Shown: positions 2,857-49,352 of the stretch, one piece after another
Layout: each line of letters begins with the position of its first letter
Numbering within the stretch: position 1 is the stretch's first letter
Assembly (NCBI GenBank): GCA_035532475.1
Contig: DATKQY010000061.1
Location: forward strand, 16,669-80,668
Direction: 5' to 3'
Length of the DNA: 64,000 nt
Source: Acidimicrobiales bacterium
Lineage (GTDB): Bacteria; Actinomycetota; Acidimicrobiia; Acidimicrobiales; Bog-793
The notes under the pieces: model-generated
What the model was told of the DNA's origin: nothing
The model's input: the letters and a program-made list of their open reading frames with translations, nothing else
Database searches by the model: none
Translations under genes and position numbers: made by a program

Positions 2857-3539
2857 GACTTCTCATCTGCGATGACCACCTGATGTTCAGCGAGGCACTG
2901 GCCTCGCTGCTGAAGGCCCGCGGCCACAGCGTCGTCGGCTGCCCGACGACGCCAGAGGGGGCGGTTGAGCTCAGCCAGGAGGAGGAGGTGGACGCGATCA
3001 TCTGCGACCTCCACTTCCCCGGGATCGACGGGTCACGATCGGTCTCGTTCCTGCGCGCCGCCCGCCCCGACACGCCGATCGTCGTCCTCACCGCGGACCC
3101 CGACCTCCGGCTCCTGCGTGAGGCGGCGCTCGGAGGTGCCGACGGCATCGCGCTGAAGATCGAAGGGGTCGAAGAGCTCGAGCGTGTGCTCCTCGAGGTG
3201 ACCTCCCCCCTGTTCACGATGGTGCGGGGGTCGTCCCCCGCACGCGAGCGGGGCTGGTCGCGGCGGGCGCGGGCCCTCGACCGCGGTCCCTCCCGCTACC
3301 GGATGGACGAGCTCCTCACCGCGCGGGAACGTCAGGTCCTCGAGCATCTCGTGCGCGGAGACGACACCTCCGCCATCGCGACGTCCCTCGGCGTCGGCAC
3401 CGCGACGATCCGTACGCATCTGCAGAACCTGTTCATGAAGTTCGGGGTCCACTCCCGACTTGAGCTGGTCGCGTACGCGATCCGTACGGGAATCGTCCGA
3501 GTGGAGAGCGGGTCGCGCGACCCCTCCCGCAGTGCGTAG
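2853..3539 (+). CDS. NarL/LuxR-family response regulator
   Basis: Receiver MRLLICDDHLMF...DAIICDLHFPGIDG. C-terminal LuxR HTH LTARERQVLEHLVRGDDTSAIATSLGVGTATIRTHLQNLFMKFGV. AAGGAG Shine-Dalgarno upstream. 4-nt overlap with the kinase gene. Confidence 0.9.
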   Translation: MRLLICDDHLMFSEALASLLKARGHSVVGCPTTPEGAVELSQEEEVDAIICDLHFPGIDGSRSVSFLRAARPDTPIVVLTADPDLRLLREAALGGADGIALKIEGVEELERVLLEVTSPLFTMVRGSSPARERGWSRRARALDRGPSRYRMDELLTARERQVLEHLVRGDDTSAIATSLGVGTATIRTHLQNLFMKFGVHSRLELVAYAIRTGIVRVESGSRDPSRSA

Positions 3540-3677: not shown

Positions 3678-4361
3678 GTGAGCAGCCTCCCGGAACACAC
3701 TTCATACGTGCACCAGACGACCGTGATGATTGTCGACAGCCACCCCGTGCTCTGCGAGGCGCTGACCAACCGCTTGTCGGAAGAGGCCGACCTGCGGGTG
3801 CTCGCCACCGCCTCGTCGGCGACGGGTCTCGTCGAGCTCGTCGCGATGCATCGTCCGCAAGTGCTAGTGCTCGACGCGGAGCTGGGCGAGGCGAACGGCG
3901 CCGCGCTCATCCGTCAGATCCGAACGACCCAGCCGGGAACCGCCATCGTCCTCCTCACATGCAACGAGGACGCCGACAGCGCCGCGCACGCCATGCGCAT
4001 GGGCGCCACGGCCTTCGTGTTGAAGGTGGCTCCGGTCCAGGACCTGCTCACCGCGATCCGCTGGGCAGGCCAGGGCGAGATGTGGATGTCGCCGCCCCTG
4101 TTGACGAACCTGTTCAGCGAGATCAGGACGCGCTCGGGCGGCGAGCGCACCCGCAGCCGGCTCTCCCAGCTCACCCAGCGTGAGCTGGAGGTGCTCGAAC
4201 TGCTGGTCGAAGGGCTCAGCCACGCGGCAATCGCCAAGCGGCTGCACCTCGCGGTCAACACGGTGCGCACGCACACCCACAACCTGCAGACCAAGCTGAA
4301 CGTCCACTCCAACCTCGCCGCAGTGTCGGTCGCACTCGACGAAGGACTCCGACCCAAGTAA
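3678..4361 (+). CDS. Second NarL/LuxR-family response regulator (no cognate kinase adjacent)
   Basis: Receiver VMIVDSHPVLCEAL...VLVLDAELGEANG...LLTCNED...FVLKV. LuxR HTH LTQRELEVLELLVEGLSHAAIAKRLHLAVNTVRTHTHNLQTKLNV. GTG start preceded by GAGGAGG. Confidence 0.85.
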   Translation: MSSLPEHTSYVHQTTVMIVDSHPVLCEALTNRLSEEADLRVLATASSATGLVELVAMHRPQVLVLDAELGEANGAALIRQIRTTQPGTAIVLLTCNEDADSAAHAMRMGATAFVLKVAPVQDLLTAIRWAGQGEMWMSPPLLTNLFSEIRTRSGGERTRSRLSQLTQRELEVLELLVEGLSHAAIAKRLHLAVNTVRTHTHNLQTKLNVHSNLAAVSVALDEGLRPK

Positions 4362-4483: not shown

Positions 4484-5344
4484 ATGTCCGTCCCTCACGC
4501 AGCTGAAGTGCCCCAGGCAGGCGAGATCCTCCTCGAGCACCGCCGGCAGAACGGTGCCCGGGACGTCGCAGCCTCGCTCGAACCGGTGGCCCGCGTGAAC
4601 CCGAAGGGGTTCCCCGCGGAGGTCGCCCAGGGGCGCTCGACCGTCAGTCTCGTCATCCCGGCGAAGAACGAGGCGCGTAACCTGCCGAACGTTCTCGACC
4701 ACCTGCCGTCCTGCATCGACGAGGTCATCCTCGTCGACGGCCGGTCCTCGGACGTCACGAAGGTCATCGCCGCGACGTGCCGTCCCGACATCCGGATCAT
4801 CAGCGAGCCGGGACCTGGCAAGGGGCTGGCGCTGCGCGCCGGCTTCGCGGCCGCCCGCGGGGACATCGTCATCGCGATGGACGCCGACGGCAGCATGTCT
4901 CCTGCGGAGATCCCCCAGTTCATCTACTTCCTGGAGCACGGCTTCGACTTCGTGAAGGGTTCGCGCTTCATCGGTGGCGGCGGTTCGCTCGACATCACGA
5001 CGATCCGTCGCATCGGCGACCGGGCGCTTCTGTACGCGGCCAACTTCATCTACCGGGCGAAGATCACCGACATCAACTACGGGTTCTACGCGTTCAAGCG
5101 CCAGTACCTCGAGCACCTTGACCTCCGCTCCTCGGGCTTCGAGATCGAGGCGGAGCTGATGATCAGGGCGCTCAAGGCGGGGCTGCGAATCGCCGAGGTG
5201 CCGAGTCTCGAGATGCCCCGCCGTGCCGGTCGCTCCAACCTCCACGCCTTCCAGGACGGTCAGCGGGTGCTGCGAACCCTGCTCTCCGAACGGAAGCGCC
5301 CGACCTCGCTCCCCCAGCCCTCGCGAGCGAACGGGCTGTCATGA
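4484..5344 (+). CDS. GT2 glycosyltransferase, polyprenyl-phosphate sugar synthase-like (DPM1/GtrB type)
   Basis: VSLVIPAKNEARNLPNVL...EVILVDGRSSD...PGKGLALRAGFAAARGDIVIAMDADGS...FVKGSRF...GFYAFKR. AAAGGAAGG Shine-Dalgarno 8 nt before the ATG. Confidence 0.85.
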   Translation: MSVPHAAEVPQAGEILLEHRRQNGARDVAASLEPVARVNPKGFPAEVAQGRSTVSLVIPAKNEARNLPNVLDHLPSCIDEVILVDGRSSDVTKVIAATCRPDIRIISEPGPGKGLALRAGFAAARGDIVIAMDADGSMSPAEIPQFIYFLEHGFDFVKGSRFIGGGGSLDITTIRRIGDRALLYAANFIYRAKITDINYGFYAFKRQYLEHLDLRSSGFEIEAELMIRALKAGLRIAEVPSLEMPRRAGRSNLHAFQDGQRVLRTLLSERKRPTSLPQPSRANGLS

Positions 5345-6780
5345 CCGCGACGGCCGATTTCGGCCGTCGCGTGGTGGCGCCGCCGCGTATCGGCGCGCGG
5401 GATTCTGGGCCTGCCGCCGGCGCGGCGGGCACATTCCGGCCTGTCCTGGTGCTGGAAGCAGAGCTCGAGCGCGGCCTGCGGGACGTACTCGATGCCGTGC
5501 AGCACCGGGGCACGAAGACCGCGGGCACACCACGCGCCGCGCTCGTGCTCGTGAGGATCCACAGCCACCCGCTCGGCCTCGTCGCGCTCGACCTCGAGGC
5601 GGACGACCCATCGAGCGCGTGGCCGATCGCGGTCCGCAGCCGCGTCGGCGCCGCGCTCGACGCCCACCTCGGCACTGACGGTCTCGACGGCTACGACATC
5701 TGGGGGGGTGCGCCTGCGCTGCAGCCGGCGTGCCTCGCGGAGCGGCGCGCCGCGCTCGCCGCGGCACGACCGGTGACGGTGATCATCGCGACGAGGGAGC
5801 GCCCGGCCCGCCTGGCGCGCTGCCTCGACTCGTTGCTCGCGCTCGAGTACCCGGACTTCGACGTCGTCGTCGTCGACAACGACCCGGAGACGGACGAGTC
5901 GAAGCGCCTGGTCGAGACGCGCTACGTCCCGACGGGCCGCGTCCGCTACGTACGCGAGACCGAGCGCGGCCTCGGCGCCGCGCACAACTGCGGGCTCAAA
6001 GAGGCGCGCGGCGAGATCGTCGCGTTCACCGACGACGACGTGCTGGTCGACGGGCACTGGCTGAGCGAGCTCGTGATCCCCTTCGTCGCGGACCCGAACG
6101 TCGGCGCCGCGACCGGGCTGATCGTCCCCGCCGAGCTGGAGACGCCCGCACAGGTGATGCTCGAGGCGCACGGCGAGTTCTCGAAGGGCTTCACGCCGCG
6201 TTCGGTCGACCTGGCGGCGCACCGCCCGGCCGACCCCCTCTTCCCGTTCACCCCCGGCAGGTTCGGATCCGGTGCCAACATGGCGTTCGAGACCGCTTGG
6301 CTGCGCGGCGCCGGAGGCTTCGACCCGGCGCTCGGGACGGGCACGACGGCACGGGGTGGCGACGATCTGGAGGCGCTCTTCCGTCTCGTCGTCTCCGGAC
6401 GCGCCCTCGCCTACCGTCCCGGCGCGGTCGTCTGGCACCACCATCATCGGGACATGTCGGCGGTCGAGCGCCAGGCGCACGGCTACGGTGTCGGGCTCGG
6501 TGCCTACCTCACGAGCGCGCTCTTCGAGGAGCCACGAGCGGCGCTGTCGATGGTCACGCGTCTGCCGGCGGCCGTGCGGCACGTCCGGGCGCGCACGGGG
6601 GCCGGATCGGTCGCCTCGAGCGAGCTCGGCGCAGCCCTCGGCTGGACGCCGTCGTGGCCCCGTGCCCTCGTGCGTGCCGAGTGGCGCGGGATCGCGACGG
6701 GCCCGTTCGCCTACCTGAAGAGCCGCCGGGAGCACCCCCGCAGGATCCCCTTCGCCAGCGCGGGAGGGACGAGGCCGTGA
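5341..6780 (+). CDS. GT2 glycosyltransferase with a ~130-aa N-terminal extension
   Basis: VTVIIATRERPARLARCLDSLLALEYPDFDVVVVDNDP...GLGAAHNCGLKEARGEIVAFTDDDVLVD (DxD). ATGA overlap with the upstream GT2. Confidence 0.85.
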   Translation: MTATADFGRRVVAPPRIGARDSGPAAGAAGTFRPVLVLEAELERGLRDVLDAVQHRGTKTAGTPRAALVLVRIHSHPLGLVALDLEADDPSSAWPIAVRSRVGAALDAHLGTDGLDGYDIWGGAPALQPACLAERRAALAAARPVTVIIATRERPARLARCLDSLLALEYPDFDVVVVDNDPETDESKRLVETRYVPTGRVRYVRETERGLGAAHNCGLKEARGEIVAFTDDDVLVDGHWLSELVIPFVADPNVGAATGLIVPAELETPAQVMLEAHGEFSKGFTPRSVDLAAHRPADPLFPFTPGRFGSGANMAFETAWLRGAGGFDPALGTGTTARGGDDLEALFRLVVSGRALAYRPGAVVWHHHHRDMSAVERQAHGYGVGLGAYLTSALFEEPRAALSMVTRLPAAVRHVRARTGAGSVASSELGAALGWTPSWPRALVRAEWRGIATGPFAYLKSRREHPRRIPFASAGGTRP

Positions 6781-9599
6781 CGCTCCACGCGACCGCGACC
6801 GACGACCGCCTCGACGTGCTCGCCCCCGACCCGGCGCTTCGCGCCGTCGTGGCGGGGCCTGCGCGGCCGATCGCCCTCGCGGACCTGTTGAACGATCTCG
6901 GGACGCTCGTGAGGCTCCTCCACGGCGCCCTGAGCGCCGGCGACCTCCTCGACGCCTTCCTCCTCGCTGCTGGTGCGCAGCAGATCGTGGAGGACCGTCT
7001 CGGCGGCCAGCGGCGACTCACCCTGCGGCGTGCCGCCGGGCATCTTGGGGGCCGGCCCGGCCTCGTCCCCCGCACGCTCGGCCGGGCGCTGCGCGCCGTC
7101 GACGCAGCGCTCGTCCGCCTGGGATCCTGGCGCCGCCTCGGGCGCGCGCTCGCCCGGGAGGCCGACGCCACGACCGACTTCCTCGTCGGGCTCGCCCACG
7201 CGCTGCTCGGCGACCCCCCGGGCCAGCAGGAGATGGCCAGGCTGCAACGGCAGGGTCGCGAGCTGGTCTCGCGCCTCGGCGAGCTGGCGCCGGCGCTGGC
7301 GGGCGAGGTTGTCCGGCTGCCCTCGTGCTTCCGCAGCTTCGACCAGCGCCCGGCCGACGTCGTCGCGATGGTGACGACCTTCGCGAGTCGTTGGCCCGAG
7401 CGATCCCGGCCGATCTCGGTCGTCGGACTGCGGACATCGGGTGGCTACCTGGCGCCACTTTGCTCAGCTGCCCTCGAGCGACTCGGCTACGCCTCGGTGA
7501 CGACGATGACCGTGCGCCCGGGCTGGCCGCTTCGACGCCGCAACCGTGCCCTTCTCGGCGCGACGGCGGAAGCCGGCGGGATGGTGCTGGTCCTCGACGA
7601 CCCGCCGGCGACCGGCAAGTCGATCGCCCGCGTGGTGAAGGACCTCGGCCGGGACGCCGGCATACCGTCGGAGTCGGTCGTGCTCCTCCTCGCCACGTTC
7701 GCGGAGGAGGCGTCGCTGCCCGCGCTCGTGGACTGTGGCGCCTCGGTCCTCCTGCCACGCTCGGCGTGGGACGTCGAGCGGCTCCTCCAGCCCGCCTGCG
7801 TGGCGCGCACCCTGGCCGGGCTGCTGCCCGAAGGCAGCGTGGTCCACCGGGTCGAATCGCTCGGTGAGCCGCACCGACCGGTGCGCGGCCATGTCTCCGC
7901 CCGCTACCGGGTCGAGACGAGCGACGCAGTCGGCGACACCGTGCGTACCGAGACGATCGTCGCGGAGGGGGTCGGCCTCGGCTACCTCGGCCGGCACGCG
8001 CTCGCCGTCGCCGAGTCGGCGCCCGAGCTGTACCCGGACGTCCTCGGCGTGGAGAACGGCATCTGCTACCGCCGCTTCCTGCCCGAGGCCTGGCGTCTCG
8101 ACGGCACCCGCCCCGCGCCCGCCACCGCCGACCGCCTCGCTGCCCACGTGGTGCGCCGGGAGCGGGCGCTCAGGGTCGAAGAGGACCGCAGCACCCTCCT
8201 GAGCGGCCGCCAGCCGGCGTGGGAGATCGCCGCGGACCTCGTGGCCCGGACGCTCGGCCCGCTCGGCGTCCCGCTGCGCCTCCCCCTCGTCGATCCCGTG
8301 GTACGGCGGCTCCTCGCCGTCGAGCACCCGACGGTCGTCGACGGCTCGACCGCGCGCGGAGGCTGGTTCCTCAGCCCGACCGGTCCGGTCGCGCGGCGCA
8401 CCGACTTCGCTGAGGGTCCGTTCAGCCACTTCGACCTGGCGAGCTACGACGCCGCCTTCGACCTCGCCGGCGCGACGGTGGCTGTGGGCGACCCCAGGTT
8501 CGCCGCCCGCCTCCGCAGCTCCTACGAGTCCCTGGCGGGCCGGAGCATCGACGCCGAGCGATGGATGCTGCTGCGCCTGGTCCACCTGTGGGATGCCGAG
8601 CGGCTCGAGCTCGCCGCCCCAGCGATGGTGCGCCGCGCCGGCGCTCGCGTGCTCCAGGAGTACGTCGCCGAGCGCTTTCTCCGCGACCTCGCGCCGGTCG
8701 AGGACGGTCCGACCTGTGCGCTCGACCTCGACGGCGTGCTCGAGACCGGCACGCTCGGCTTCTCGGCGACGACCCTCGCCGGGGCGATGGCGCTGCGGGC
8801 GCTTCGGGCCCACGGCTACCGCGTCGTCCTCGCCACCGGGCGCAGCCTCGGCGAGGTCATCGAGCGGTGCGCGGCCTACGGGCTGGCCGGCGGCGTCGCC
8901 GAGTACGGCTCGGTCGCCTACGACCACCTCCGCGGGGAGAGCACCGAGCTCGTCGCGAGCGGCGACGAGGCGGCGGTCGAGGCGTTGCGGGCCGCCCTCC
9001 GCGGCCAACCCGAGCTCACCCTCGACGGGGACTACCCCAGGATCGTCCGCGTCTCGCGCACCCGCGCGGGGCGCACGCGGCGTGGCCTCGACGCCGAGAC
9101 CGTCGCCGGCCTGCTCGAGACGCCCGGGACCGGCGATCGCCTCACGGCGATCCCCGGCGAGTACCAGACCGACTTTGCGGCGACCGGGGTGAGCAAGGAC
9201 CAGGCGCTTTGCGTCCTGCTCGACCAGCTCGACGGTGCCGGCGGGGTCCGCCGGGATCCTGGACACCGCCTCGAGCTGGCCGTCGGCGACGGCCGCGCCG
9301 ACGTCGGGATGCTCCGGCTCGCGCGCCTCGGGCTGGCCCCAGCCAACGCTGACGAGGTGATGCGCCGCAGCGGTGCCTCCGTCCTGAGGCGCTCCTACCA
9401 GGCGGGCCTCGGCGATGCCGTCGGCCGGCTGCTCGGCCACCGGCCAGGCAGCTGCCCGGCGTGCCGGCTGCCCGCGCTCACCCCAGACGCCCGCGAGCTG
9501 CTCGCGCTGGTGTCGGTGCAAGAGGGTGGTCGGCGGGGCGCGCCGGGGCGCCTCCTCGGGCTCGCGGCCGGCGCCGTCCGGGGTCTGTGGCGGACATGA
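6777..9599 (+). CDS. 940-aa multidomain protein: helical N-domain, phosphoribosyltransferase-like domain, kinase-like (apparently degenerate) middle region and HAD-IIB phosphatase domain
   Basis: Real start taken as GTG 6777 (GTGA overlap with the GT2 stop) inside track ORF 5730..9599. PRPP-loop-like MVLVLDDPPATGKSIARVV. HAD motif I CALDLDGVLETG, Lys motif GVSKDQAL, motif III AVGDGRADVGML. Confidence 0.7.
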   Translation: MTLHATATDDRLDVLAPDPALRAVVAGPARPIALADLLNDLGTLVRLLHGALSAGDLLDAFLLAAGAQQIVEDRLGGQRRLTLRRAAGHLGGRPGLVPRTLGRALRAVDAALVRLGSWRRLGRALAREADATTDFLVGLAHALLGDPPGQQEMARLQRQGRELVSRLGELAPALAGEVVRLPSCFRSFDQRPADVVAMVTTFASRWPERSRPISVVGLRTSGGYLAPLCSAALERLGYASVTTMTVRPGWPLRRRNRALLGATAEAGGMVLVLDDPPATGKSIARVVKDLGRDAGIPSESVVLLLATFAEEASLPALVDCGASVLLPRSAWDVERLLQPACVARTLAGLLPEGSVVHRVESLGEPHRPVRGHVSARYRVETSDAVGDTVRTETIVAEGVGLGYLGRHALAVAESAPELYPDVLGVENGICYRRFLPEAWRLDGTRPAPATADRLAAHVVRRERALRVEEDRSTLLSGRQPAWEIAADLVARTLGPLGVPLRLPLVDPVVRRLLAVEHPTVVDGSTARGGWFLSPTGPVARRTDFAEGPFSHFDLASYDAAFDLAGATVAVGDPRFAARLRSSYESLAGRSIDAERWMLLRLVHLWDAERLELAAPAMVRRAGARVLQEYVAERFLRDLAPVEDGPTCALDLDGVLETGTLGFSATTLAGAMALRALRAHGYRVVLATGRSLGEVIERCAAYGLAGGVAEYGSVAYDHLRGESTELVASGDEAAVEALRAALRGQPELTLDGDYPRIVRVSRTRAGRTRRGLDAETVAGLLETPGTGDRLTAIPGEYQTDFAATGVSKDQALCVLLDQLDGAGGVRRDPGHRLELAVGDGRADVGMLRLARLGLAPANADEVMRRSGASVLRRSYQAGLGDAVGRLLGHRPGSCPACRLPALTPDARELLALVSVQEGGRRGAPGRLLGLAAGAVRGLWRT

Positions 9600-12001
9600 G
9601 CGCCATCGTCCAGGATCCGCCCCTGCGCCACCGGGGCGTCACGTCGTTCGCGCGCGAGCTGCGTGAGCCGCTGTTCCGCAACGGCCTCGCGCTGGTGCTC
9701 AGCTCGCTCGCCACCGGCGCGATCGGCGTGCTCTTCTGGCTGCTCGCGGCGCGCTTCTACTCGCCGGCCGTCGTCGGCCGGAACTCCGTCGCCGTCTCCA
9801 CCTTGATGTTCATGGGCGGCGTCGCCCAGCTGAACCTCGCGAGCGCGCTCATCCGCTTCATCCCGCCCGCCGGCCGATCGGTGCGCCGGCTGGTCGTGTG
9901 CGTCTACGCGCTCAGCTCGGCGATCTGCGCCGGCCTCGCGATCGTCTTCCTCCTCCTGGTCGGCCACCTCGTCCCGAGCCTCGCCTACCTCCGCAACGAC
10001 CGGTGGCTGCCGATGTGGTGGGTGCTGTCGAGTGTCGCCTGGGCGATCTTCGTGCTGGAGGACGGTGCGCTCACCGGCCTTCGCCGGGCCCCGATCGTGC
10101 CGATCGAGAACGCGGGCTTCTCGCTGCTCAAGGCGGCGATCGTCATCCCCTTCGCCACGATCTTCCCGACGACCGGGATCTTCGTCGCCTGGACCTTGGC
10201 GACGATCGTGACCATCCTGCCGACGAACATCTACATCTTCGGCCGGGCGATCCCGCTCGCCCACCGGCGTTCCCCCGTCGGCGGAGTGTCCGTGCGCCAG
10301 ATCGCGCGGTTCACCCGTTACGACTTCGTCGGCTCGATCTTCTGGCTGGTCGCGGTGTCGCTCCTGCCGGTGATGGTGATCCGCGAGGTCGGGGCCACGA
10401 AGAGCGCCGCCTTCTCGCTCGCGTGGGTGATCTCGTACTCGTTGTACATGGTGAGCATCAGCATGGGCTCGTCACTCGTCGTCGAGACCGCCGTCGACCA
10501 GTCCCAGCTGGAGCTGCAGTGCCGGCGCGTGATGGCGAACCTCGCAAAGCTGATCACGCCCGCGGTGGTCGTCCTCCTCGCCGGCGCCCCGTTCATCCTC
10601 AAGCTGTTCGGCCACAGCTACTCGGCGGACGGTGCCAACGCCCTCAGGCTGCTCGCGCTCTCCGCGCTGCCCTTCATCGTCAACGGCACCGCCGTCGGCG
10701 CGCTGCGGGCGCGGCGGCGCATGGTCCCGGTCGCCGTGCTGAACATCGGCATGTGCATCTCGGTCGTGGCGATCAGCTGGATCCTGCTGCCGCGAGTCGG
10801 CATCGTCGGCGCCGGCGTCGCGTGGCTCGTCACCCAGTGCGTCGCCGCTGTCGCGATGTTGGCGGCGCGGCGCCTCTGGCTACGGCCGGACTACCGCTTC
10901 CCCGGCATGCGCGCCTGGCTGACCGGACTCTCGCTCCCGCTCGTCCGCCTCGCCGCCAACGCCTCGTTGCCGGAGGTCGTCACCCGCCTGCGCTCGAGCC
11001 GGAGCACCGGCCGGCTGAAGGCGCAACTGCCGAGCGAGGTCGTCGCCGACCTGACCCGCTCGGCGGGCCGGGGCCGGCGACAGCTCGGCGAACTGGAGGT
11101 CCTTCCGAGCGCATCCGACCTCACGGTCGCGATCCTCCACAGCACCGACGGCAAGCCATACGCGGTCGCCAAGGTGCCGCGCACCGACCGGGCCTGCGCC
11201 GACCTGCGCCGCCAGGAGTCGGTGCTGCGTGTGCTCGCCGCTGACGACCGGCTCGGTACCTGGCGGCGCTTCCTTCCGAGCTTCAAGCTCCACGAGCACG
11301 AGCAGCACACGTACGCCGTCGAGTCGCTCGGTCGGGGCGTCGATGCGGCGGGGCTGCTCGGCGGGGCGTCGGCGTCGGCGCTCGCGATCGCCCGGCGCTC
11401 GCTCAAGGCGATCGGCGACCTCCACGAGCGCACGGGCCGCGAGGTCGTGGTCGACGAGCTGCTCTTCGAGCAGCTCCTCGAGCCGTCGCTGCGCCCGCTG
11501 CGCCGGTCGCACCCGTCCGGCATCGTGCCGGCGTCCCAGCTCGTGGCGCTCGCCCGGCTGGAGGACCGCCTACGCGAGGCCAGCATCGGGCGCACCGTCC
11601 CGATCAGCTGGGTCCATGGCGACTTCACGCCGGGCAACGTGATGCTCACCGCCGACGGGGCGCGCGTCACGACGCTGCTCGACTGGGGTCAGGCCCGCCC
11701 CGACGGCATCCCGGCGTTCGACGTCCTCCTGTGGGTCTTCGCGCTGCGCTGCCGGGCTGGCGGCCACCAGTTCGGCGCGGAGGTCCGCCGCGTCATGAGG
11801 TCCGCCGACTGGTCCGGCGATCCCGTGCTCGCGCTTGCCTCGAAGACGCTCGAACGGACCGACATCGCCGCAGGCGACCTCGCGCTCTGGTGCTGGCTCG
11901 ACCACGTCGCCGGCAACCTCGACAAGTCCGAGCGCTACGCACGTCACCCCCTGTGGTGGACGTCGAACGTCGAGCCCGTGCTGCGCGAGGTGGCAGCATG
12001 A
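9596..12001 (+). CDS. Wzx/MOP-type polysaccharide flippase (about 12-14 TM) fused to a C-terminal APH/choline-kinase-type phosphotransferase domain
   Basis: ATG 9596 (ATGA overlap) inside ORF 9461..12001. The N-terminal ~480 aa are polytopic (LALVLSSLATGAIGVLFWLLAARFYSPAVVGRNSVAVSTLMF...). The C-terminus carries the kinase catalytic loop WVHGDFTPGNVML and the DFG-equivalent LLDWGQARPDG. Confidence 0.75.
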   Translation: MSAIVQDPPLRHRGVTSFARELREPLFRNGLALVLSSLATGAIGVLFWLLAARFYSPAVVGRNSVAVSTLMFMGGVAQLNLASALIRFIPPAGRSVRRLVVCVYALSSAICAGLAIVFLLLVGHLVPSLAYLRNDRWLPMWWVLSSVAWAIFVLEDGALTGLRRAPIVPIENAGFSLLKAAIVIPFATIFPTTGIFVAWTLATIVTILPTNIYIFGRAIPLAHRRSPVGGVSVRQIARFTRYDFVGSIFWLVAVSLLPVMVIREVGATKSAAFSLAWVISYSLYMVSISMGSSLVVETAVDQSQLELQCRRVMANLAKLITPAVVVLLAGAPFILKLFGHSYSADGANALRLLALSALPFIVNGTAVGALRARRRMVPVAVLNIGMCISVVAISWILLPRVGIVGAGVAWLVTQCVAAVAMLAARRLWLRPDYRFPGMRAWLTGLSLPLVRLAANASLPEVVTRLRSSRSTGRLKAQLPSEVVADLTRSAGRGRRQLGELEVLPSASDLTVAILHSTDGKPYAVAKVPRTDRACADLRRQESVLRVLAADDRLGTWRRFLPSFKLHEHEQHTYAVESLGRGVDAAGLLGGASASALAIARRSLKAIGDLHERTGREVVVDELLFEQLLEPSLRPLRRSHPSGIVPASQLVALARLEDRLREASIGRTVPISWVHGDFTPGNVMLTADGARVTTLLDWGQARPDGIPAFDVLLWVFALRCRAGGHQFGAEVRRVMRSADWSGDPVLALASKTLERTDIAAGDLALWCWLDHVAGNLDKSERYARHPLWWTSNVEPVLREVAA

Positions 12002-14817
12002 CGGACGTGCTCGCACCCCCGACCTGCGCGATCTCGGTCGTCGTCTGCGCGTACACCGAGGAGCGATGGGATGAGATCAACGCGGCCGTCGCCTCGTTGC
12101 GAACCCAGAGCATCCCCGCCGAAGAGATCATCCTCGTCGTCGACCACTGCCCGAGCCTCCTCGCCCGGGCCCGGCGCGCCTTCGCCGACATTCATGTGAT
12201 CGCGAGCGTCGGGCGGCCGGGACTGTCGGGCGCCCGGAACACCGGCTACGAGGCGGCACACGGTGACGTGGTGGCGTTCCTCGATGACGACGCCACGGCG
12301 GCTCCGGACTGGCTCGAGCAGCTGCAGCGCACCTACCAGGACGGCGAGGTCGCCGGCGTCGGCGGCCTCGTCGTGCCGAACTGGGTCGACCACCGCCCGG
12401 GCTGGTTCCCGGAGGAGTTCGACTGGGTGGTCGGCTGCTCCCACTCGGGGATGCCGTCGGCGACCGCCGACGTGCGCAACTTCGTCGGTGCCAACATGTC
12501 GTTCCGCCGCGACGTGCTCGTCGGCCTCGGCGGTTTCGCCGGCGTGCTCGGCCGCAACGGCGCCGACGCCTCGGGCTGCGAGGAGACCGAGCTGTGCATC
12601 CGGGCCTCGACGTGGCACGAGCACAGCCGCCTCGTCTACGAGCCTGCGGCCCGCGTCGAGCACCGCGTGCCGCGGGCCCGGGGCACCTGGAAGTACTTCC
12701 TCCGCCGCTGCTACGGCGAGGGCAAGTCGAAGGCGCTCGTCCGAAAGATCGCCGGCGCGCAGCACGGGCTGTCCGAGGAGCGGATCCACGTCCGCAGGAC
12801 GATCCCGCTCGCCGTCGCCCGCTCCATCGGCGAGGCGCTACGGGGACGTCCGGTGGCGGGCCTGCGCGCCGTGGCCAACGTCACCGGCACTGGCGTCACC
12901 GTGCTCGGCTACGCCGTCGGCCGCGCGGCCCTGCTGCGCGGCACGGCGCGCCCGCACGAGCGGCTCGCCCCCCCGACGGCGAAGCGGTTGGCTCCTGGCC
13001 GGATCGTGGTGCGGACCTGGCTCGGGGGGACCGCGCTCGGCGCCGGCGCGCTGACGCTCGGCCTGGCGCTGTGGATCACGACGATGGTGCGGGGCGTCCC
13101 GCTCGGCCGCATGAGCGACCTCGGCCTCGTGTCGGTGCTGCCGGCGACGTACTGGGCCGCGCTCGTGCTCGTCACCGTCAGCTTCTGCTCGACGGTCCGG
13201 CGGATGGAGTCGAGCAAGGCGTTGCTCGTCGCGCACGTCGTGCTGCTGCTGGCGATCCTGCACCTCACCCCGAACGTCCTCTACGAGACCCTCCGGTACT
13301 CATGGGCGTGGAAGCACGTGGCGATCACCAACGGTGTCATCGCCCATCACGGCGTGAACACCGCGCAGCCCGACCCGAACCTCGTCGCCTATCAGGACTG
13401 GCCGGGTTTCTTCACCCTGAACGCGCTCTTCTCGTCGGGCTCCGGTTTCGCCTCGCCGCTCAGCTACGCCGGGTGGGCCCCGTTCGTCAGCGAGCTCTCC
13501 TACGCCGGGCCGCTGATCCTCATCTTCCGCACGTTCTCGGCCGACCAGCGGATCCGCTGGACGGCGCTGTGGATCTTCTACCTCGGCAACTGGGTCGGCC
13601 AGGACTACTTCTCGCCGCAGGGCTACGCCTACTTCCTCTACCTCACCGTGATCGCGCTGTGCCTGCGGCACTTCGCGTCCGCGCGGGCCGGGGCGTCATC
13701 GCTCGACGTGGGACCGGCCGCCGTCGAGGTCGCCGAGGAAGCAGCCGAGCAACGGCGGCACGATCGGCGCCTGTACTACCTGTTCACGGTGATCATCATC
13801 GCGGCGGTCGCCTCCAGCCACCAGCTCACCCCGTTCATGATCGTGAGCGCCCTCGCGCTCCTCGCCCTCTTCGGCAGGCTCCGCTACAAGTCGCTGCCGG
13901 TCGTCGCCCTCGCCCTCACCGTCGGCTGGATCGCCTTCGCGGCGCGCACGTTCATGAAGCAGAACATCCCGAGCCTGATCAAGGGTTTCGGTGACCTGCT
14001 GTCGAACACCGCCGTCCAGATGGTCAACCCCGGGCAGGCGAGCTCCCTGCAGCTGTTCGGCTCCGAGGTCGACCGTCTCCTCACCGCCGCCGTGATCCTG
14101 CTCGGCGCCTTCGGCTTCCTGTGGCGCTGGCGCAACGGCCAACAGCGCGCCTGGTTCCCGGCGGCGCTGCTCTGCGCCTCGCCGATGCTCGCCCTCGCGG
14201 CGAACAACTACGGGGGCGAGATCGTGTTCCGCGTCGTGCTGTTCGCGCTCCCCTTCCTCGCCGTGCTCGCCGCGTCGCTGTTCGTCCCGGCGCGCCACCG
14301 GCCGGGACGGCGCCACCGGGTGCACAACGCGGCCAGGCTCGCGGTCGTGGCGGCGCTGCTCGGCGGCTTCATCATCTCCTACTACGGCAAGGAACGGACG
14401 AACTACTTCCCGCCCGAGGAGGTACAGAGCTTCTCCGCCCTCTACCGCCTCGCCCCTCCCGGATCGCTCATCGTCGCCGCGACCGGCAATCAACCGTGGC
14501 CGCTCGAGAACTACGAGACCTACAGCGACTACTACTTCACCGCCGACACGCCCCAGGCACTCGCCGACGTCATCAAGCACCCGGTCGCCGTGCTGGCCCA
14601 CGACCTGACGGCGAGGAAGGACGCGTTCTTGGTGTTCGACACGACCGACGACGCGGTGATCGAGAGCACCGGGTTGATGCCGCGGGGCGCGTACGGCGCC
14701 GTCGAGCGAGCGGTGCTCGCGTCGCCCCGGTTCAAGGTCCTGCTACGGAACTCGACGACCGTCGTCCTCGAGCTCGCCTCGCGTGGCGCGTCCACCACGC
14801 AGCCGGTGAACGCATGA
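11998..14817 (+). CDS. GT2 glycosyltransferase fused to a ~14-TM domain with a C-terminal soluble domain (GT-C- or polymerase-like topology)
   Basis: ATG 11998 (ATGA overlap). GT2 part: ISVVVCAYTEERWDEINAAVASLRTQ...GLSGARNTGYEAAHGDVVAFLDDDA...FPEEFDWVVGCS. About 14 hydrophobic helices follow, then a ~130-aa hydrophilic tail. Confidence 0.75.
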   Translation: MTDVLAPPTCAISVVVCAYTEERWDEINAAVASLRTQSIPAEEIILVVDHCPSLLARARRAFADIHVIASVGRPGLSGARNTGYEAAHGDVVAFLDDDATAAPDWLEQLQRTYQDGEVAGVGGLVVPNWVDHRPGWFPEEFDWVVGCSHSGMPSATADVRNFVGANMSFRRDVLVGLGGFAGVLGRNGADASGCEETELCIRASTWHEHSRLVYEPAARVEHRVPRARGTWKYFLRRCYGEGKSKALVRKIAGAQHGLSEERIHVRRTIPLAVARSIGEALRGRPVAGLRAVANVTGTGVTVLGYAVGRAALLRGTARPHERLAPPTAKRLAPGRIVVRTWLGGTALGAGALTLGLALWITTMVRGVPLGRMSDLGLVSVLPATYWAALVLVTVSFCSTVRRMESSKALLVAHVVLLLAILHLTPNVLYETLRYSWAWKHVAITNGVIAHHGVNTAQPDPNLVAYQDWPGFFTLNALFSSGSGFASPLSYAGWAPFVSELSYAGPLILIFRTFSADQRIRWTALWIFYLGNWVGQDYFSPQGYAYFLYLTVIALCLRHFASARAGASSLDVGPAAVEVAEEAAEQRRHDRRLYYLFTVIIIAAVASSHQLTPFMIVSALALLALFGRLRYKSLPVVALALTVGWIAFAARTFMKQNIPSLIKGFGDLLSNTAVQMVNPGQASSLQLFGSEVDRLLTAAVILLGAFGFLWRWRNGQQRAWFPAALLCASPMLALAANNYGGEIVFRVVLFALPFLAVLAASLFVPARHRPGRRHRVHNAARLAVVAALLGGFIISYYGKERTNYFPPEEVQSFSALYRLAPPGSLIVAATGNQPWPLENYETYSDYYFTADTPQALADVIKHPVAVLAHDLTARKDAFLVFDTTDDAVIESTGLMPRGAYGAVERAVLASPRFKVLLRNSTTVVLELASRGASTTQPVNA

Positions 14818-15302
14818 GCGCCGGCCGCGTCCCCGTCGAGCACCCGCAGTCGCGTCGAGGCGCCCTCCGGCTCGAGCCCTCCCCGGAGCTCCTCCTCGCG
14901 CTGTCCGGCTGGGTCGCCGTCGCCATCGTGGCGTTGCAGGCGCCGGTTCCCCTCCGCACGATCGCCGTCTTCGGCTTCTCCGCCTCCGGGCCGGGGTTGG
15001 CACTCACCGCCTTTCTCGTGCGGCGCGACCGGCTCGAGCGCTTCGTGCTCACCCTCGCGCTCAGCCTCGCCGTCGCCACCTTGGTGAGCGAGGCCTTGGC
15101 GCTCGCCCACGCCTTCAGCGCCCTCACAACGCTCGTGACGCTGGCAGCCCTCACGACCGTTCTCGTCGGGGTCCACGCCCGCGACCGCCTCGCCGGACCC
15201 GGGCGGCGAGCCGCCCAGCTGCTCAGCCGTGCCTTTCTCGGCCCCGAGGAGGAACGCAAGGCCGCCATGCCCCCGCGGCCCAACAAGGAGGTTGTGGCAT
15301 GA
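14814..15302 (+). CDS. Small 4-TM membrane protein, function unknown
   Basis: ATG 14814 (ATGA overlap) within ORF 14121..15302. Four hydrophobic segments (LLLALSGWVAVAIVAL, IAVFGFSASGPGLALTAFLV, FVLTLALSLAVATLVSEALALA, LTTLVTLAALTTVLVGV). The gene is overlap-coupled on both sides. Confidence 0.55.
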   Translation: MSAGRVPVEHPQSRRGALRLEPSPELLLALSGWVAVAIVALQAPVPLRTIAVFGFSASGPGLALTAFLVRRDRLERFVLTLALSLAVATLVSEALALAHAFSALTTLVTLAALTTVLVGVHARDRLAGPGRRAAQLLSRAFLGPEEERKAAMPPRPNKEVVA

Positions 15303-16141
15303 ACGCCATGCCGATCCCGATCCTGCTGTACCACGCGGTATCGCCGGATCCGCCGCGCTGGCTCGAGCCGTGGAACGTCACCCCGGAGGTGTTTAGCGAG
15401 CAGCTCGACACGATCGTCGAGAACGGCTGCACGCCGTTCACGGTGTCGGGGCTGGTCGACATGCTCATGTCGCACAAGGAGCTGCCCGAGCGCCCGGTCG
15501 TCATCACCTTCGACGACGGCTTCGCCGACTTCGCTACCTACGCGGCGCCGGCACTCGCGGAGAGGGACATCCCGAGCACGATCTACGTGACGACGGGCAC
15601 CCTCGCCGGGCGGCAGGGCGCTCGTGACGTGAAGCTGCCGCCGGCCGCCATGCTCAGCTGGTCGGACCTCGCCGGGCTCGAGGGGCACGGCGTGGAGATC
15701 GGCGGGCACTCCCACACGCACCCCGAGCTCGACACGCTCTCCGCCGAGCGCGCGGCAGCCGAGATCCTGCGGCCGAAGGAGCTGCTCGAGGACGTCCTCG
15801 GCCACACCGTGCCGAGCTTCGCGTACCCGCACGGCTACTCGAGCCCGCGCATCCGGCGGATCACCGCCGAGGCAGGGTACGAGTCGGCCTGCGCGGTCCG
15901 CAACGCCTTCAGCTCCGTCTCGGACAACCTCTACGCCCTCTCGCGCCTGACCGTGCGGGACTTCACCCCGATGTCGACGCTGTCGGCCTGGTCGCTCGGC
16001 ACCGGTGCCGAGGTGGCGCCGCCGGGCGAGCGCCGCAGGACGCAGCTCTGGCGCTGGTACCGCAGGGCGCACCTCGACTCCATCGCCGGCGCGCCGTTCG
16101 CCGCGGCCGCGGCGCGAGGCGCTGACGAAGCGAGCCGATGA
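15299..16141 (+). CDS. Polysaccharide deacetylase (CE4, NodB homology domain)
   Basis: NodB motifs VVITFDDGF and GGHSHTHPEL, plus AYPHGY. CAAGGAG Shine-Dalgarno. ATGA overlap with the upstream gene. Confidence 0.85.
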   Translation: MNAMPIPILLYHAVSPDPPRWLEPWNVTPEVFSEQLDTIVENGCTPFTVSGLVDMLMSHKELPERPVVITFDDGFADFATYAAPALAERDIPSTIYVTTGTLAGRQGARDVKLPPAAMLSWSDLAGLEGHGVEIGGHSHTHPELDTLSAERAAAEILRPKELLEDVLGHTVPSFAYPHGYSSPRIRRITAEAGYESACAVRNAFSSVSDNLYALSRLTVRDFTPMSTLSAWSLGTGAEVAPPGERRRTQLWRWYRRAHLDSIAGAPFAAAAARGADEASR

Positions 16142-16184
16142 CCATGGCCGCCCATCCACCACGCCACGTGGCGCCTGGGAGAGG

Positions 16185-17189
16185 ATGAGCACGGTGAGCT
16201 CGCAAACCGTCCTCTCCGAGCCCCCAGTGGCCGTCCGGCGCTCGACGCCGGCGCACCGGCGCACGAAGCCGCCCTTTCGCGAGCGCGCCCGGCACCTGCC
16301 GGGCGTCGTGATGCTCATCGCGCTGTTTTCGCTGGCGGGGCTCGTCGTCGTGCACGACGCCTCGACCAGGTCGGTCCCGCCCTCGGCGACGGCGACGCCG
16401 CCGAAGGCGACGCCGGCGACGCCGCCGAAGCTCCCGGCGTCGAGCTTCATCCCCTCGACCGGAGCGGCGACCCCGCCACGCGGTGGGCCATGGCTGCTCT
16501 CCTTCGACGACGAGTTCAACCGGTCGGCCCTCGATCGCAGTAAGTGGACCGTCTGCTACCCGTGGGACTGCACGAACACGGGCAACAAGAACGAGCTCGA
16601 GTGGTACCAGCCACAGAACGTCACCGAGAGCGGCGGGACGCTGCAGCTCACCGCCAAGGTCCAGTCGGCGCACGGCATGCCCTTCACCTCGGGGTTGATC
16701 CAGACCGACAAGAAGTTCACGTTCCGCTACGGCTACATGGAGATCCGGGTGCGCCTTCCCAAGGGGCAGGGACTGTGGCCCGCCTTCTGGGCGTTGCCGA
16801 CGAACGAGAGCTTCCCGCCAGAGATCGACGGGTTCGAGTACTACGGAGCGAACCCGACGGCCGCCATGCTCGGGGTGCACTACGGCAACAACCTGCACTC
16901 GGCGAACGTGATCGGCGACCCTGCGCTCACCGAGGGCTACCACACCTTCGCCGTCGACTGGGAGCCGGGCTCGCTCACCTGGTACGTGGACGGGGTCGAG
17001 AAGTTCAAGACGGACGTCAACGTGACCCAGACGATGTACCTCATCGCGAACCTCGCCGTCCGGGGACCGCTCGGCGCGGACGCCAAGACGCCGATGCCCG
17101 CCACGATGTCGATCGACTGGATCCGGGTGTGGCAGCACCCGTTGCCGGTCAAGCACGTCGCCCCCGGCAAGGCGCCCTGGCCGAGGTAG
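16185..17189 (+). CDS. Membrane-anchored GH16 family glycoside hydrolase (beta-glucanase-like)
   Basis: ATG 16185 after GGGAGAGG, inside ORF 16005..17189. N-terminal TM VVMLIALFSLAGLVVV, then a Pro/Thr linker. Catalytic ExDxxE as PPEIDGFEY. RYGYMEIRVRLPKGQGLWPAFWAL. Confidence 0.85.
   Translation: MSTVSSQTVLSEPPVAVRRSTPAHRRTKPPFRERARHLPGVVMLIALFSLAGLVVVHDASTRSVPPSATATPPKATPATPPKLPASSFIPSTGAATPPRGGPWLLSFDDEFNRSALDRSKWTVCYPWDCTNTGNKNELEWYQPQNVTESGGTLQLTAKVQSAHGMPFTSGLIQTDKKFTFRYGYMEIRVRLPKGQGLWPAFWALPTNESFPPEIDGFEYYGANPTAAMLGVHYGNNLHSANVIGDPALTEGYHTFAVDWEPGSLTWYVDGVEKFKTDVNVTQTMYLIANLAVRGPLGADAKTPMPATMSIDWIRVWQHPLPVKHVAPGKAPWPR

Positions 17190-31210: not shown

Positions 31211-32182
<972 letters not shown>

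Positions 32183-35295: not shown

Positions 35296-35299
<4 letters not shown>
33275..35299 (+). CDS. glgE: Alpha-1,4-glucan:maltose-1-phosphate maltosyltransferase GlgE
   Basis: GTG 33275 inside ORF 32309..35299. SWYECFPRS...GFDVLYLPPIHPIG...FRVDNPHTKPF...FLSEAFTRPKVM...YFRPNVWPNTPDIL. Confidence 0.92.

Positions 35300-38745
<3,446 letters not shown>

Positions 38746-47165: not shown

Positions 47166-47182
<17 letters not shown>
44702..47182 (+). CDS. treY: Malto-oligosyltrehalose synthase
   Basis: GTG 44702 inside ORF 43940..47182. [36 protein letters not shown]...[10 protein letters not shown]...DIVPNHL...[13 protein letters not shown]...[14 protein letters not shown]. Confidence 0.9.
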
Positions 47183-49301
<2,119 letters not shown>

Positions 49302-49352
49302 GCTAACGGCTCATCGCAAAGGCCGGAGAGACCCCGCCGGCGCGACGTGCGA

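Follow-up and report, generated by a model that had tools for sequence, protein, structure and literature searches.

An operon of eight genes lies at positions 4484–17189 of a 64,000-nucleotide stretch of DNA from an Acidimicrobiales bacterium (contig DATKQY010000061.1; the whole stretch is called the window here). With a probability of roughly 0.55, its products assemble a glycan linked to polyprenyl monophosphate, modify it in the cytoplasm, flip it and transfer it outside the membrane. The operon apparently represents a strongly conserved, uncharacterised system of glycoconjugate assembly; lipid-linked assembly, flipping and transfer by GT-C enzymes are themselves known processes. The preliminary description of the stretch recognised no characterised pathway in it, and the present results agree: all NCBIfam matches fall below their cut-offs, and literature searches returned no description of the cluster. 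The eight genes are listed below in order. N and C denote the N- and C-terminal parts of the fused proteins G4 and G5.

G1, 4484–5344, + strand: soluble GT2 glycosyltransferase of the DPMS/AglJ/ArnC/PpgS type (PF00535, 1.5e-22), with no transmembrane (TM) segment
G2, 5341–6780, + strand: GT2 glycosyltransferase with an N-terminal extension of ~130 residues (PF00535, 4e-25; PF13641, 3e-20)
G3, 6777–9599, + strand: cytoplasmic four-part protein with a GTG start (AlphaFold2 (AF2), Foldseek, Pfam and profile search)
G4, 9596–12001, + strand: predicted Wzx/PST-type (MOP) flippase (residues 1–~450) fused to a cytoplasmic APH-family kinase (residues ~500–801)
G5, 11998–14817, + strand: AglG/PglI-like cytoplasmic GT2 (residues 1–~320) fused to a GT-C-fold membrane glycosyltransferase (residues ~335–939)
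G6, 14814–15302, + strand: small protein with 4 TM segments by hydropathy and a conserved CPG(L/A)A...LE motif
G7, 15299–16141, + strand: cytoplasmic CE4 de-N-acetylase (PF01522, 9e-25)
G8, 16185–17189, + strand: extracytoplasmic GH16 (PF00722, 1e-21) with an N-terminal TM anchor (residues 38–56) and a Pro/Thr/Ala linker

All eight open reading frames (ORFs) lie on the + strand and are intact, with zero internal stops. The six 4-nt start/stop overlaps reported in the preliminary description (ATGA at 5341, 9596, 11998, 14814 and 15299, and GTGA at 6777) and the 43-nt spacing between G7 and G8 were reproduced at every coordinate. The GC content at third codon positions (GC3) is 0.89–0.95 across all eight genes and is similar in neighbouring genes. 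This matches real genes in a genome of ~72% GC, and the eight ORFs are therefore read as real genes. Other long ORFs, antisense or in alternative frames, are artefacts of the high GC content. In an Acidimicrobiales metagenome-assembled genome (MAG; locus L002) the proteins are 46–69% identical and the same six genes overlap by 1, 4, 4, 4 and 4 nt. Since the coupling is kept at this level of identity, the overlaps are under selection rather than due to chance. No terminator-like site was found between the genes; the single match lies inside G8, fewer than in shuffled sequences, and the promoter and terminator scan of the region was uninformative. The region 4484–17189 is thus a real, tightly coupled eight-gene operon.

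Domains and conserved residues of the encoded proteins

Every domain assignment of the preliminary description held in the comparisons with Pfam, the PDB and Foldseek, and several gained detail. G1 was described there as similar to polyprenyl-phosphate-sugar synthases. Its best PDB match is Pyrococcus DPMS (5mlz, 3e-17), followed by ArnC (1e-9), GpgS and GtrB (3e-4). Residues 53–253 of G1 align with residues 24–231 of 5mlz, and the protein has the catalytic-domain similarity typical of polyprenyl-phosphate GT2 enzymes. NCBIfam gives AglJ (1e-35), dolichyl-phosphate hexose transferase (3e-23), PpgS (8e-15) and ArnC (2e-11), all below cut-off: G1 falls short of the equivalog thresholds with 123.5 bits against 325 for AglJ, 54.9 against 370 for PpgS and 43.3 against 529 for ArnC. 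DPMS, ArnC, GpgS, GtrB, AglJ, dolichyl-phosphate hexose transferase and PpgS all glycosylate polyprenyl monophosphate, and G1 would be the initiating polyprenyl-phosphate glycosyltransferase of the operon. G2 matches the NCBIfam models MftF-like (5e-34) and EpsD (4e-23), again below cut-off, and is a candidate elongating transferase. The QxxRW motif is present in none of the three GT2 domains (G1, G2 and G5N).

G3 is composed of a helical N-terminal domain (residues ~30–180), a type I phosphoribosyltransferase (PRTase) domain (~185–330), a domain with a choline-kinase-like fold (~340–640) and a HAD-IIB phosphatase domain (~645–885). Single-sequence PDB searches were empty for the N-terminal and middle parts of G3 and for the membrane parts of G4 and G5, so that profiles and AF2 models with Foldseek were needed. 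The AF2 model of G3 residues 1–645 has a pLDDT of 90.7. In Foldseek, the PRTase part matches HGPRT and PyrR with probability 1.0, and the kinase-like part matches LicA (4r7b, 1e-5), choline/ethanolamine kinases and maltokinase. Pfam detects Pribosyltran (PF00156) in 19 of 47 members of the G3 family and Hydrolase_3 in 46 of them. The motifs of the phosphoribosyl pyrophosphate (PRPP)-binding loop and of the pyrophosphate (PPi) loop, VLVLDDPPATGKS and VVGLRTSGGYLAP, are found in G3, as in type I PRTases. Within these loops G217, R219, G222, D274, D275, P276 and P277 are invariant among the 47 relatives, and T220, S221 and G280 are kept in 46. The HAD domain has the full phosphatase motif, the DxD nucleophile pair D650/D652 and K807, D838 and D842 all being invariant, and its profile matches HAD-IIB (Cof-type) structures in the PDB at 1e-11. 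G3 lacks the features of the gPRT-PRP family, its PRTase being of the classical type I fold and its HAD of Cof-type IIB, a comparison in which the PRP family was not directly included.

The kinase-like part of G3 is different in this respect. Its loop reads VVDGxT; D522 is kept, the Asn is lost and the metal-binding D543 is found in 31 of 47 relatives, which leaves the kinase motif incomplete. Most probably the domain serves for binding, or else it is an enzyme that has diverged very far; as a kinase it is probably not catalytic. Comparison of the G3 and G4 profiles with hhalign gave no similarity (probability 0.7%), and therefore the two kinase-like modules are not close paralogues. The three folds assigned to G3 in the preliminary description (PRTase-like, kinase-like and HAD) are thus verified, while the catalytic motif of the second is degenerate. 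Beyond the HAD domain, the C-terminal tail contains an invariant H888...C893-x-x-C896 (about 9438–9464), possibly a metal site.

The N-terminal half of G4 has ~12 TM segments by hydropathy. The G4 of the window gives no match to Polysacc_synt (PF01943) at E<=0.01; 11 of 50 full-length relatives do, the best at 2e-6, and relatives with the same fusion carry the JGI label 'O-antigen/teichoic acid export membrane protein'. The kinase half matches PF01636 at 1.5e-12. APH is detected in 47 of the 50 family members, and the family profile matches macrolide and aminoglycoside phosphotransferases at 4e-8. G4C carries the motifs HGDFTPGN and LDW typical of APH kinases, with K526, H674, D676, N681 and D696 invariant or at least 90% conserved. 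Judged by these residues, the catalytic centre of the kinase appears intact, in good accord with the flippase-kinase fusion proposed in the preliminary description.

G5N covers the full length of the NCBIfam AglG model (3e-65; 220 bits against a cut-off of 440) and matches PglI in the PDB at 5.5e-7. AglG and PglI extend lipid-linked glycans. No Pfam family covers G5C. An AF2 model of residues 331–939, built on 52 relatives, has a pLDDT of 89.9 and a pTM of 0.90. Foldseek matches it with probability 1.00 to AftA (1.2e-7), yeast and human STT3, PglB, AglB, ArnT, DPY19 and AftD, with E-values from 1e-7 to 4e-4 and TM-scores of 0.4–0.5. G5C has the architecture of the GT-C_A class, ~13 TM segments followed by a C-terminal extracytoplasmic alpha/beta domain; the latter is placed outside the membrane because the GT2 domain of G5 is cytoplasmic. 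The preliminary description had G5 as a GT2 fused to ~14 TM helices and saw in the cluster an apparent extracytoplasmic transferase or polymerase. The fusion and the transferase stand, the second with a GT-C fold, and the helices are now counted as about 13 plus the alpha/beta domain. Conserved polar residues among the 52 relatives are D374 (41 of 52), H422, R433, K439, H440, D536, H608, E741 and R745. D374 lies in the first loop and may correspond to the acidic residue that STT3, PglB and AglB conserve in their first external loop; outside this loop, D536 and E741 are nearly invariant. Neither WWD nor WW[DE]xG (the WWDxG motif) occurs anywhere in G5, and G5C is therefore not an STT3-family enzyme. 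A QRIRW at residue 517 of G5 (about 13546–13560) belongs to a loop in the GT-C membrane part and not to the GT2; the family consensus at this place is DRRLxW, and the string is not a synthase motif.

G6 is more difficult to place by homology. A search found 3 proteins only, and further relatives were taken from syntenic loci. In a Pfam scan of G6 and nine relatives at E<=1 there was no match to GtrA (PF04138), SMR or EamA. Matches below threshold are DUF1616, whose N-terminal part is hit repeatedly (best 3.4e-5), and DUF6541; the only literature mention of DUF1616 found gives no function. Despite its low detectability, G6 adjoins G5C in 18 of the 48 related loci described below, and it may be a partner of the GT-C domain.

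G7 has the CE4 motifs TFDD at residue 70 and HSHTH at residue 137. Its PDB matches are 6dq3 (2e-17), then IcaB and PgaB, and NCBIfam gives HfsH (1e-10). The protein has no signal peptide or TM segment, the ORF is not extendable upstream, and a hydrophobic N-terminus is absent from all 33 relatives that were examined. On these grounds G7 is placed in the cytoplasm, so that it would resemble ArnD and HfsH and not PgaB, IcaB and PgdA. The CE4 family of the preliminary description is retained, and the predicted cytoplasmic location is added to it. G8 carries the GH16 ExDxxE motif as EIDGFE at residue 213. Its best PDB matches are endo-beta-1,3-glucanases/laminarinases (4e-26), and NCBIfam gives EglC (2e-34) and ExoK (1e-15). 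With its TM anchor, PF00722 domain and EIDGFE motif, it is the membrane-anchored GH16 that had been described.

Related loci and domain fusions

The proteins of the window are found in metagenome assemblies; among genomes, a MAG from an uncultured Actinomycetota of soil comes closest (91% identity). Their families are much wider. The GT2-GT-C fusion has >1500 relatives; 120 were listed, for the most part full-length proteins at 40–55% identity. The Wzx-kinase fusion has 1065 cluster representatives at E<1e-30, and most of those listed are full length. A scan with the G3 profile, using one genome per species, found a G3 relative in at least 245 species genomes. They include Streptomyces, Kitasatospora, Streptacidiphilus, Amycolatopsis, Pseudonocardia, Nocardia, Rhodococcus chondri, Blastococcus and Actinospica, as well as Acidimicrobiia, Thermoleophilia, four Chloroflexota orders, Dormibacterota and one Terriglobia genome. 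One G3 relative, beside LuxR-type response regulators, is on a contig labelled 'Candidatus Micrarchaeaceae archaeon' (L044, DATLRQ010000078.1), probably a mis-binned bacterial contig. In two MFD long-read MAGs that are ~90% identical to the window (L001 and L007), the G3/G4 regions are fragmented by apparent frameshifts; these are likely assembly errors, not pseudogenes.

The gene set was counted in 48 G3-seeded loci, each 20 kb or longer, with the domains of the window mapped within 10 kb. In 36 of the 48, which come from several phyla, six or more of the other nine components are present. The most frequent are G4C and G5C (81% each), followed by G2, G4N and G7 (73% each), G5N (69%), G8 (56%) and G1 (50%). 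The gene order is shuffled among related loci. Chance juxtaposition of the eight genes is rejected, as gene set and fusions are both conserved across related loci.

In related loci, the two fusions of the window often occur in split form; G4N adjoins G4C in 23 of 34 loci, and G5N adjoins G5C in 12 of 33. Among database relatives there are further fusions: Wzx-kinase-GT-C (8 representatives), Wzx-kinase-GT2-GT-C (P0262, 1750 residues), Wzx-GT2-GT-C (P0103), G3-Wzx (4), GT2-G3 (4), Wzx-kinase-CE4 (P0238) and G3-PAP2 (P0187 and P0198). The domain fusions had been called unusual in the preliminary description. They are in fact common in databases and are lineage variants of a widespread gene set. 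Because this network of alternative fusions joins the parts to each other, it is strong evidence that the flippase, the kinase, the AglG-like GT2, the GT-C domain, G3 and the CE4 enzyme share one membrane pathway.

Not all parts are equally constant. Relatives without G3 and the kinase exist (L087 and L004), and L004 is a minimal cluster of G1, G5 and G6. Therefore the core is taken as G1, G2, Wzx, G5N, G5C and G6, together with CE4 and GH16, and G3 and the kinase as optional decoration. Additional families in related loci are FemAB/Acetyltransf_6 (30, including L005 and L088), a secreted PF04185 phosphoesterase (16), an NAD-dependent epimerase (15) and GH26 (7); none of these four is present in the window. 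The phosphoesterase would be consistent with trimming of an exported phosphate, and the FemAB-like acyltransferase with a free amine open to re-acylation. The eight genes include no PHPT/PNPT primer, Wzy polymerase or PCP/Wzz chain-length regulator, and neither these families nor OPX recur in 82 related loci.

Proposed pathway and alternatives

What is observed is the structure of the genes, the folds, motifs and predicted topology of their products, and the way in which the genes are conserved and fused. On this basis we propose an order of steps, substrates, a monophosphate carrier, a chemistry for G3 and an acceptor. G1 would load the first sugar, probably an N-acetylhexosamine (HexNAc) or a hexose, onto polyprenyl phosphate. 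The cytoplasmic CE4 enzyme G7 would strip the N-acetyl group from a HexNAc of the lipid-linked intermediate, as ArnD and HfsH do. G5N, which is AglG/PglI-like, and G2 would attach further beta-linked sugars. At the mouth of the flippase, G4C would phosphorylate a hydroxyl with ATP. G3 would most likely add a phosphoribosyl group from PRPP, and its HAD domain would remove the 5-phosphate; its kinase-like domain would mainly be a binding module. The Wzx-type domain G4N would then flip the finished lipid-linked glycan, and the GT-C domain of G5, with G6 as its partner, would transfer it to an envelope acceptor or a growing chain. Outside the membrane, the anchored G8 would trim or process beta-1,3(4) linkages of the product. 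The phosphorylated and/or de-N-acetylated envelope glycopolymer suggested in the preliminary description is a plausible outcome of this route and keeps its conditional standing.

The monophosphate carrier is indicated by the lack of a phosphoglycosyl-transferase primer among the eight genes. The donors of GT-C enzymes are linked to polyprenyl phosphate. The PRPP step is proposed because of the invariant PRPP loops of G3 and of the PRPP-using transferases fused to HAD phosphatases that are published in glycan pathways (PMC11127046).

The logic of the pathway appears closest to those of the archaeal Agl, the Arn and the Gram-positive three-component systems. In the Agl system of Haloferax volcanii (AglJ, AglG, AglR and AglB/AglS), AglJ and the dolichyl-phosphate hexose transferases resemble G1, and AglG resembles G5N over its full length. 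Both systems have a GT-C transferase, for G5C with AglB, PglB and STT3 among the fold matches, the Wzx/PST-type flippase has a predicted counterpart in G4N, and neither has a phosphoglycosyl-transferase primer. However, the scores reach only 123 against 325 bits and 220 against 440 bits, G5C has no WWDxG motif, and the operon is bacterial. It also adds the PRTase/kinase-like/HAD protein, the APH kinase, the cytoplasmic CE4 enzyme, the GH16 and the covalent fusion of GT2 and GT-C.

Several points weigh against the proposed pathway. The PRPP step is its weakest part. Nitrogen is the normal nucleophile for type I PRTases, and G3 differs from the known fusions in the subtype of its HAD domain. Among the best 60 of 67 PDB profile matches of G3 at E<=1 there is no chain named as ribofuranosyltransferase or Bcs3. 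That the amine freed by the CE4 enzyme serves as the nucleophile of G3 is speculation. The kinase-like motif of G3 is degenerate, and the relatives that lack both G3 and the kinase suggest that these steps are optional. The NCBIfam matches are all well under the equivalog cut-offs and so do not identify the sugars. In Foldseek, AftA and ArnT score about the same as oligosaccharyltransferases, so that transfer en bloc and transfer of single sugars are not discriminated by these scores; AftA and ArnT use monosaccharide donors. Should another part of the genome encode a priming phosphoglycosyl transferase, the carrier would be a diphosphate. Finally, homology does not settle the role of G6, for which partnership with the GT-C domain is suggested by its position.

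An alternative that we consider unlikely is a three-component side-chain system of the ArnC/ArnD/ArnEF/ArnT, PpgS/Rv3632/Rv3779 or CsbB/GtcA/YfhO type. Here G1 would make polyprenyl-phosphate HexNAc, the CE4 enzyme would deacetylate it, G4N and/or G6 would flip it, and the GT-C domain would add a single amino sugar to an existing wall polymer, with G2 and G5N building or priming the acceptor. The Arn system (ArnC-ArnD-ArnE/F-ArnT) and the mycobacterial PpgS/Rv3632/Rv3779 galactosamine system share with the operon a GT2 polyprenyl-phosphate sugar synthase, a GT-C enzyme, a small membrane protein and a CE4-type deacylase that works in the cytoplasm, ahead of the flipping step. G1 matches ArnC (1e-9) and PpgS (8e-15), the CE4 enzyme is cytoplasmic like ArnD, the small 4-TM protein G6 adjoins the GT-C domain, and the best fold matches of G5C include two enzymes with monosaccharide donors, ArnT and AftA. 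The minimal G1/G5/G6 cluster of L004 exists as well. A MOP-family flippase acting on a polyprenyl-phosphate monosaccharide also has a precedent (PMC11127046).

The operon differs from the Arn and PpgS systems in two extra GT2 domains, a Wzx-type flippase and the kinase and PRTase modules, in the absence of an SMR or GtrA signature from G6, and in NCBIfam scores below cut-off. The two further GT2s belong to the conserved set, one of them is fused to the GT-C domain, and the nearest relatives of this one, AglG and PglI, extend lipid-linked glycans. Wzx-type flippases usually carry oligosaccharides. The conserved module of G3 and the kinase, and G2 and G5N too, would be left unexplained by the addition of a single amino sugar. 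The Gram-positive GtrB/CsbB–GtrA/GtcA–GT-C (YfhO) systems are similar in that they make a lipid-linked sugar with a GT-A enzyme in the cytoplasm, include a small membrane protein and have a GT-C enzyme that acts outside. They differ from the operon in that G6 is not GtrA by Pfam and G1 lacks the C-terminal TM helices of GtrB, and in the extra GT2s, Wzx and modification enzymes of the latter.

A more specific version of the proposed pathway, distinctly unlikely in all its parts together, would make the operon a bacterial counterpart of archaeal-type glycosylation. An oligosaccharide would be transferred en bloc from polyprenyl monophosphate by an unclassified GT-C family that is coupled covalently to the flippase and to the last cytoplasmic transferase. 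A soluble type I PRTase, representing a new type of enzyme, would ribosylate the lipid-linked glycan with PRPP before export, possibly at the amine freed by CE4, and the fused HAD would dephosphorylate the product. Such a system would be common across Actinomycetota, Chloroflexota and Dormibacterota.

The invariant PRPP loops and the active-looking HAD in one protein can also be read as a route to a pentofuranose donor, which we hold to be very unlikely. G3 would make polyprenyl-phospho-ribose-5-phosphate from PRPP, the HAD domain would dephosphorylate it, G4N would flip the ribofuranose (epimerised where the epimerase is present), and the GT-C domain would add it to a glycan. In function this would equal the PPPRS-PRP/MATE/GT136 route, or the mycobacterial decaprenylphosphoryl-phosphoribose (DPPR)/decaprenylphosphoryl-arabinose (DPA) route, with unrelated parts as its components. 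In mycobacteria the DPPR phosphatase belongs to the PAP2 enzymes, and G3 is fused to PAP2 in P0187 and P0198 and to Wzx in other relatives. The top fold match of G5C is the arabinofuranosyltransferase AftA, and an NAD-dependent epimerase is found in 15 related loci. However, G3 is a soluble type I PRTase and not a UbiA-type membrane enzyme, and we know of no soluble type I PRTase with a lipid phosphate as its substrate. A lipid-linked donor already comes from G1, the clusters without G3 (L004 and L087) retain the GT-C domain, and the Foldseek scores do not separate AftA from STT3. A three-component pathway of the same logic is published (PMC11127046). With the PRPP-dependent ribofuranosyltransferases (gPRT-PRP of Kelly et al., PPPRS-PRP/MATE/GT136 and CriT-CrpP of Hib Bcs3) the operon shares a PRPP transferase and a HAD in one polypeptide within a glycan cluster and a GT-C enzyme, together with a flippase predicted to be of the MOP family. 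The type I PRTase of G3 is PyrR/HGPRT-like, unlike the novel gPRT fold or the UbiA-type PPPRS, its HAD is Cof-type IIB, and G3 adds the choline-kinase-like domain and the helical N-terminal domain.

An ordinary Wzx/Wzy-type exopolysaccharide locus is, in our view, just as improbable. In such a locus the primer and the polymerase would be elsewhere or unrecognised, with the GT-C domain in the role of polymerase; the product would be a secreted exopolysaccharide, and the GH16 would control chain length like ExoK. The Wzx-type flippase with several GT2s, the relationship of the GH16 to ExoK and EglC and the response regulators upstream are consistent with this. As in succinoglycan biosynthesis with ExoK and ExsH, a GH16 endo-beta-glycanase is encoded within a polysaccharide cluster (ExoK 1e-15, EglC 2e-34), but G8 is membrane-anchored and closest to laminarinases, and for it hydrolysis and transglycosylation are both possible. 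The families of PHPT/PNPT, Wzy, PCP/Wzz and OPX recur in none of the 82 loci, the initiating-type enzyme that is present is DPMS-like, and the GT-C fold is, to our knowledge, not that of known Wzy polymerases. With no primer, Wzy or PCP among the eight genes or recurring in those loci, the classical form of such a locus is set aside at the same low probability.

Other known systems are rejected more briefly. Synthesis of poly-N-acetylglucosamine (PgaABCD/IcaADBC) is not compatible with GT2 domains lacking QxxRW, a cytoplasmic CE4 enzyme and PgaC scores of 19–47 bits against a cut-off of 422. For teichoic acid, TagF/TagB and CDP-alcohol enzymes were not found among the eight genes, and for mycobacterial arabinogalactan and lipoarabinomannan the likeness to AftA and AftD is at the level of fold only. 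The wps/gsf clusters of Actinoplanes (PMC13390465) are different systems.

Genomic setting and significance

The genes around the operon that were placed individually are the following.

703–1638, + strand: ANTAR/GAF protein, part of the upstream stack of regulators
1912–2856, + strand: histidine kinase, overlapping the gene of the next LuxR-type response regulator
2853–3539, + strand: LuxR-type response regulator, paired with the histidine kinase
3678–4361, + strand: orphan response regulator of the LuxR/GerE type (Pfam Response_reg, 1e-20; GerE, 4e-17)
19335–20243, − strand: second GH16 paralogue, possibly associated (PF00722, 3e-23)

The orphan LuxR-type response regulator ends 122 nt upstream of G1. 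A response regulator with 62% identity is at the same position in the Acidimicrobiales locus L002, and a LuxR response regulator also precedes the cluster in a Gaiellaceae locus (L088). From its conserved position, the orphan protein is likely the regulator of the operon. An Rfam scan of positions 1–22000 detected no element upstream of the operon. It gave only a sub-threshold match inside a coding region, resembling a guanidine-II riboswitch (3194–3242, − strand; 28.1 bits against a gathering score of 32; E 0.04), which lies within the coding sequence of a response regulator and is probably due to chance.

Downstream, an S9 peptidase, the second GH16 and a ParA/Mrp-type ATPase are encoded on the opposite strand. 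The second GH16 is 51% identical to the catalytic domain of G8, convergent with it and about 2 kb downstream, past the S9 peptidase. It is present in the ~90% identical relative L001 too, and extra GH16 copies flank many related loci. The remainder of the window holds housekeeping and sugar metabolism genes. A GDP-mannose 4,6-dehydratase (442 bits; 31214–32182, − strand), 14 kb downstream, might provide a deoxyhexose. A protein of 1212 residues from the alpha-amylase family (35107–38742, + strand), which may be a TreS-type fusion as judged by size alone, and an isoamylase-type gene (47169–49310, − strand) suggest a neighbourhood of alpha-glucan metabolism and are unrelated to the glycan operon. 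An island acquired by horizontal transfer is rejected, the GC3 of the operon being that of its neighbouring genes.

If the proposed pathway is correct, a large share of soil Actinomycetota, with several neighbouring phyla, would make an envelope glycoconjugate by a pathway for which we found no study. Three families without functional annotation would take part in it: a GT-C family that no Pfam model covers, the Wzx-kinase fusions with >1000 cluster representatives, and the PRTase/kinase-like/HAD protein. Some carriers of the gene set can be cultured and are open to genetics, so that the system lends itself to direct tests; culturable carriers include Streptomyces sp. NBC_00133, S. griseorubiginosus, Amycolatopsis orientalis DSM 43388, Pseudonocardia asaccharolytica DSM 44247 and Nocardia spp. 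The three families together would bring new glycan chemistry, a new class of GT-C enzymes, and a flippase, a modifying enzyme and a transferase that are covalently coupled.

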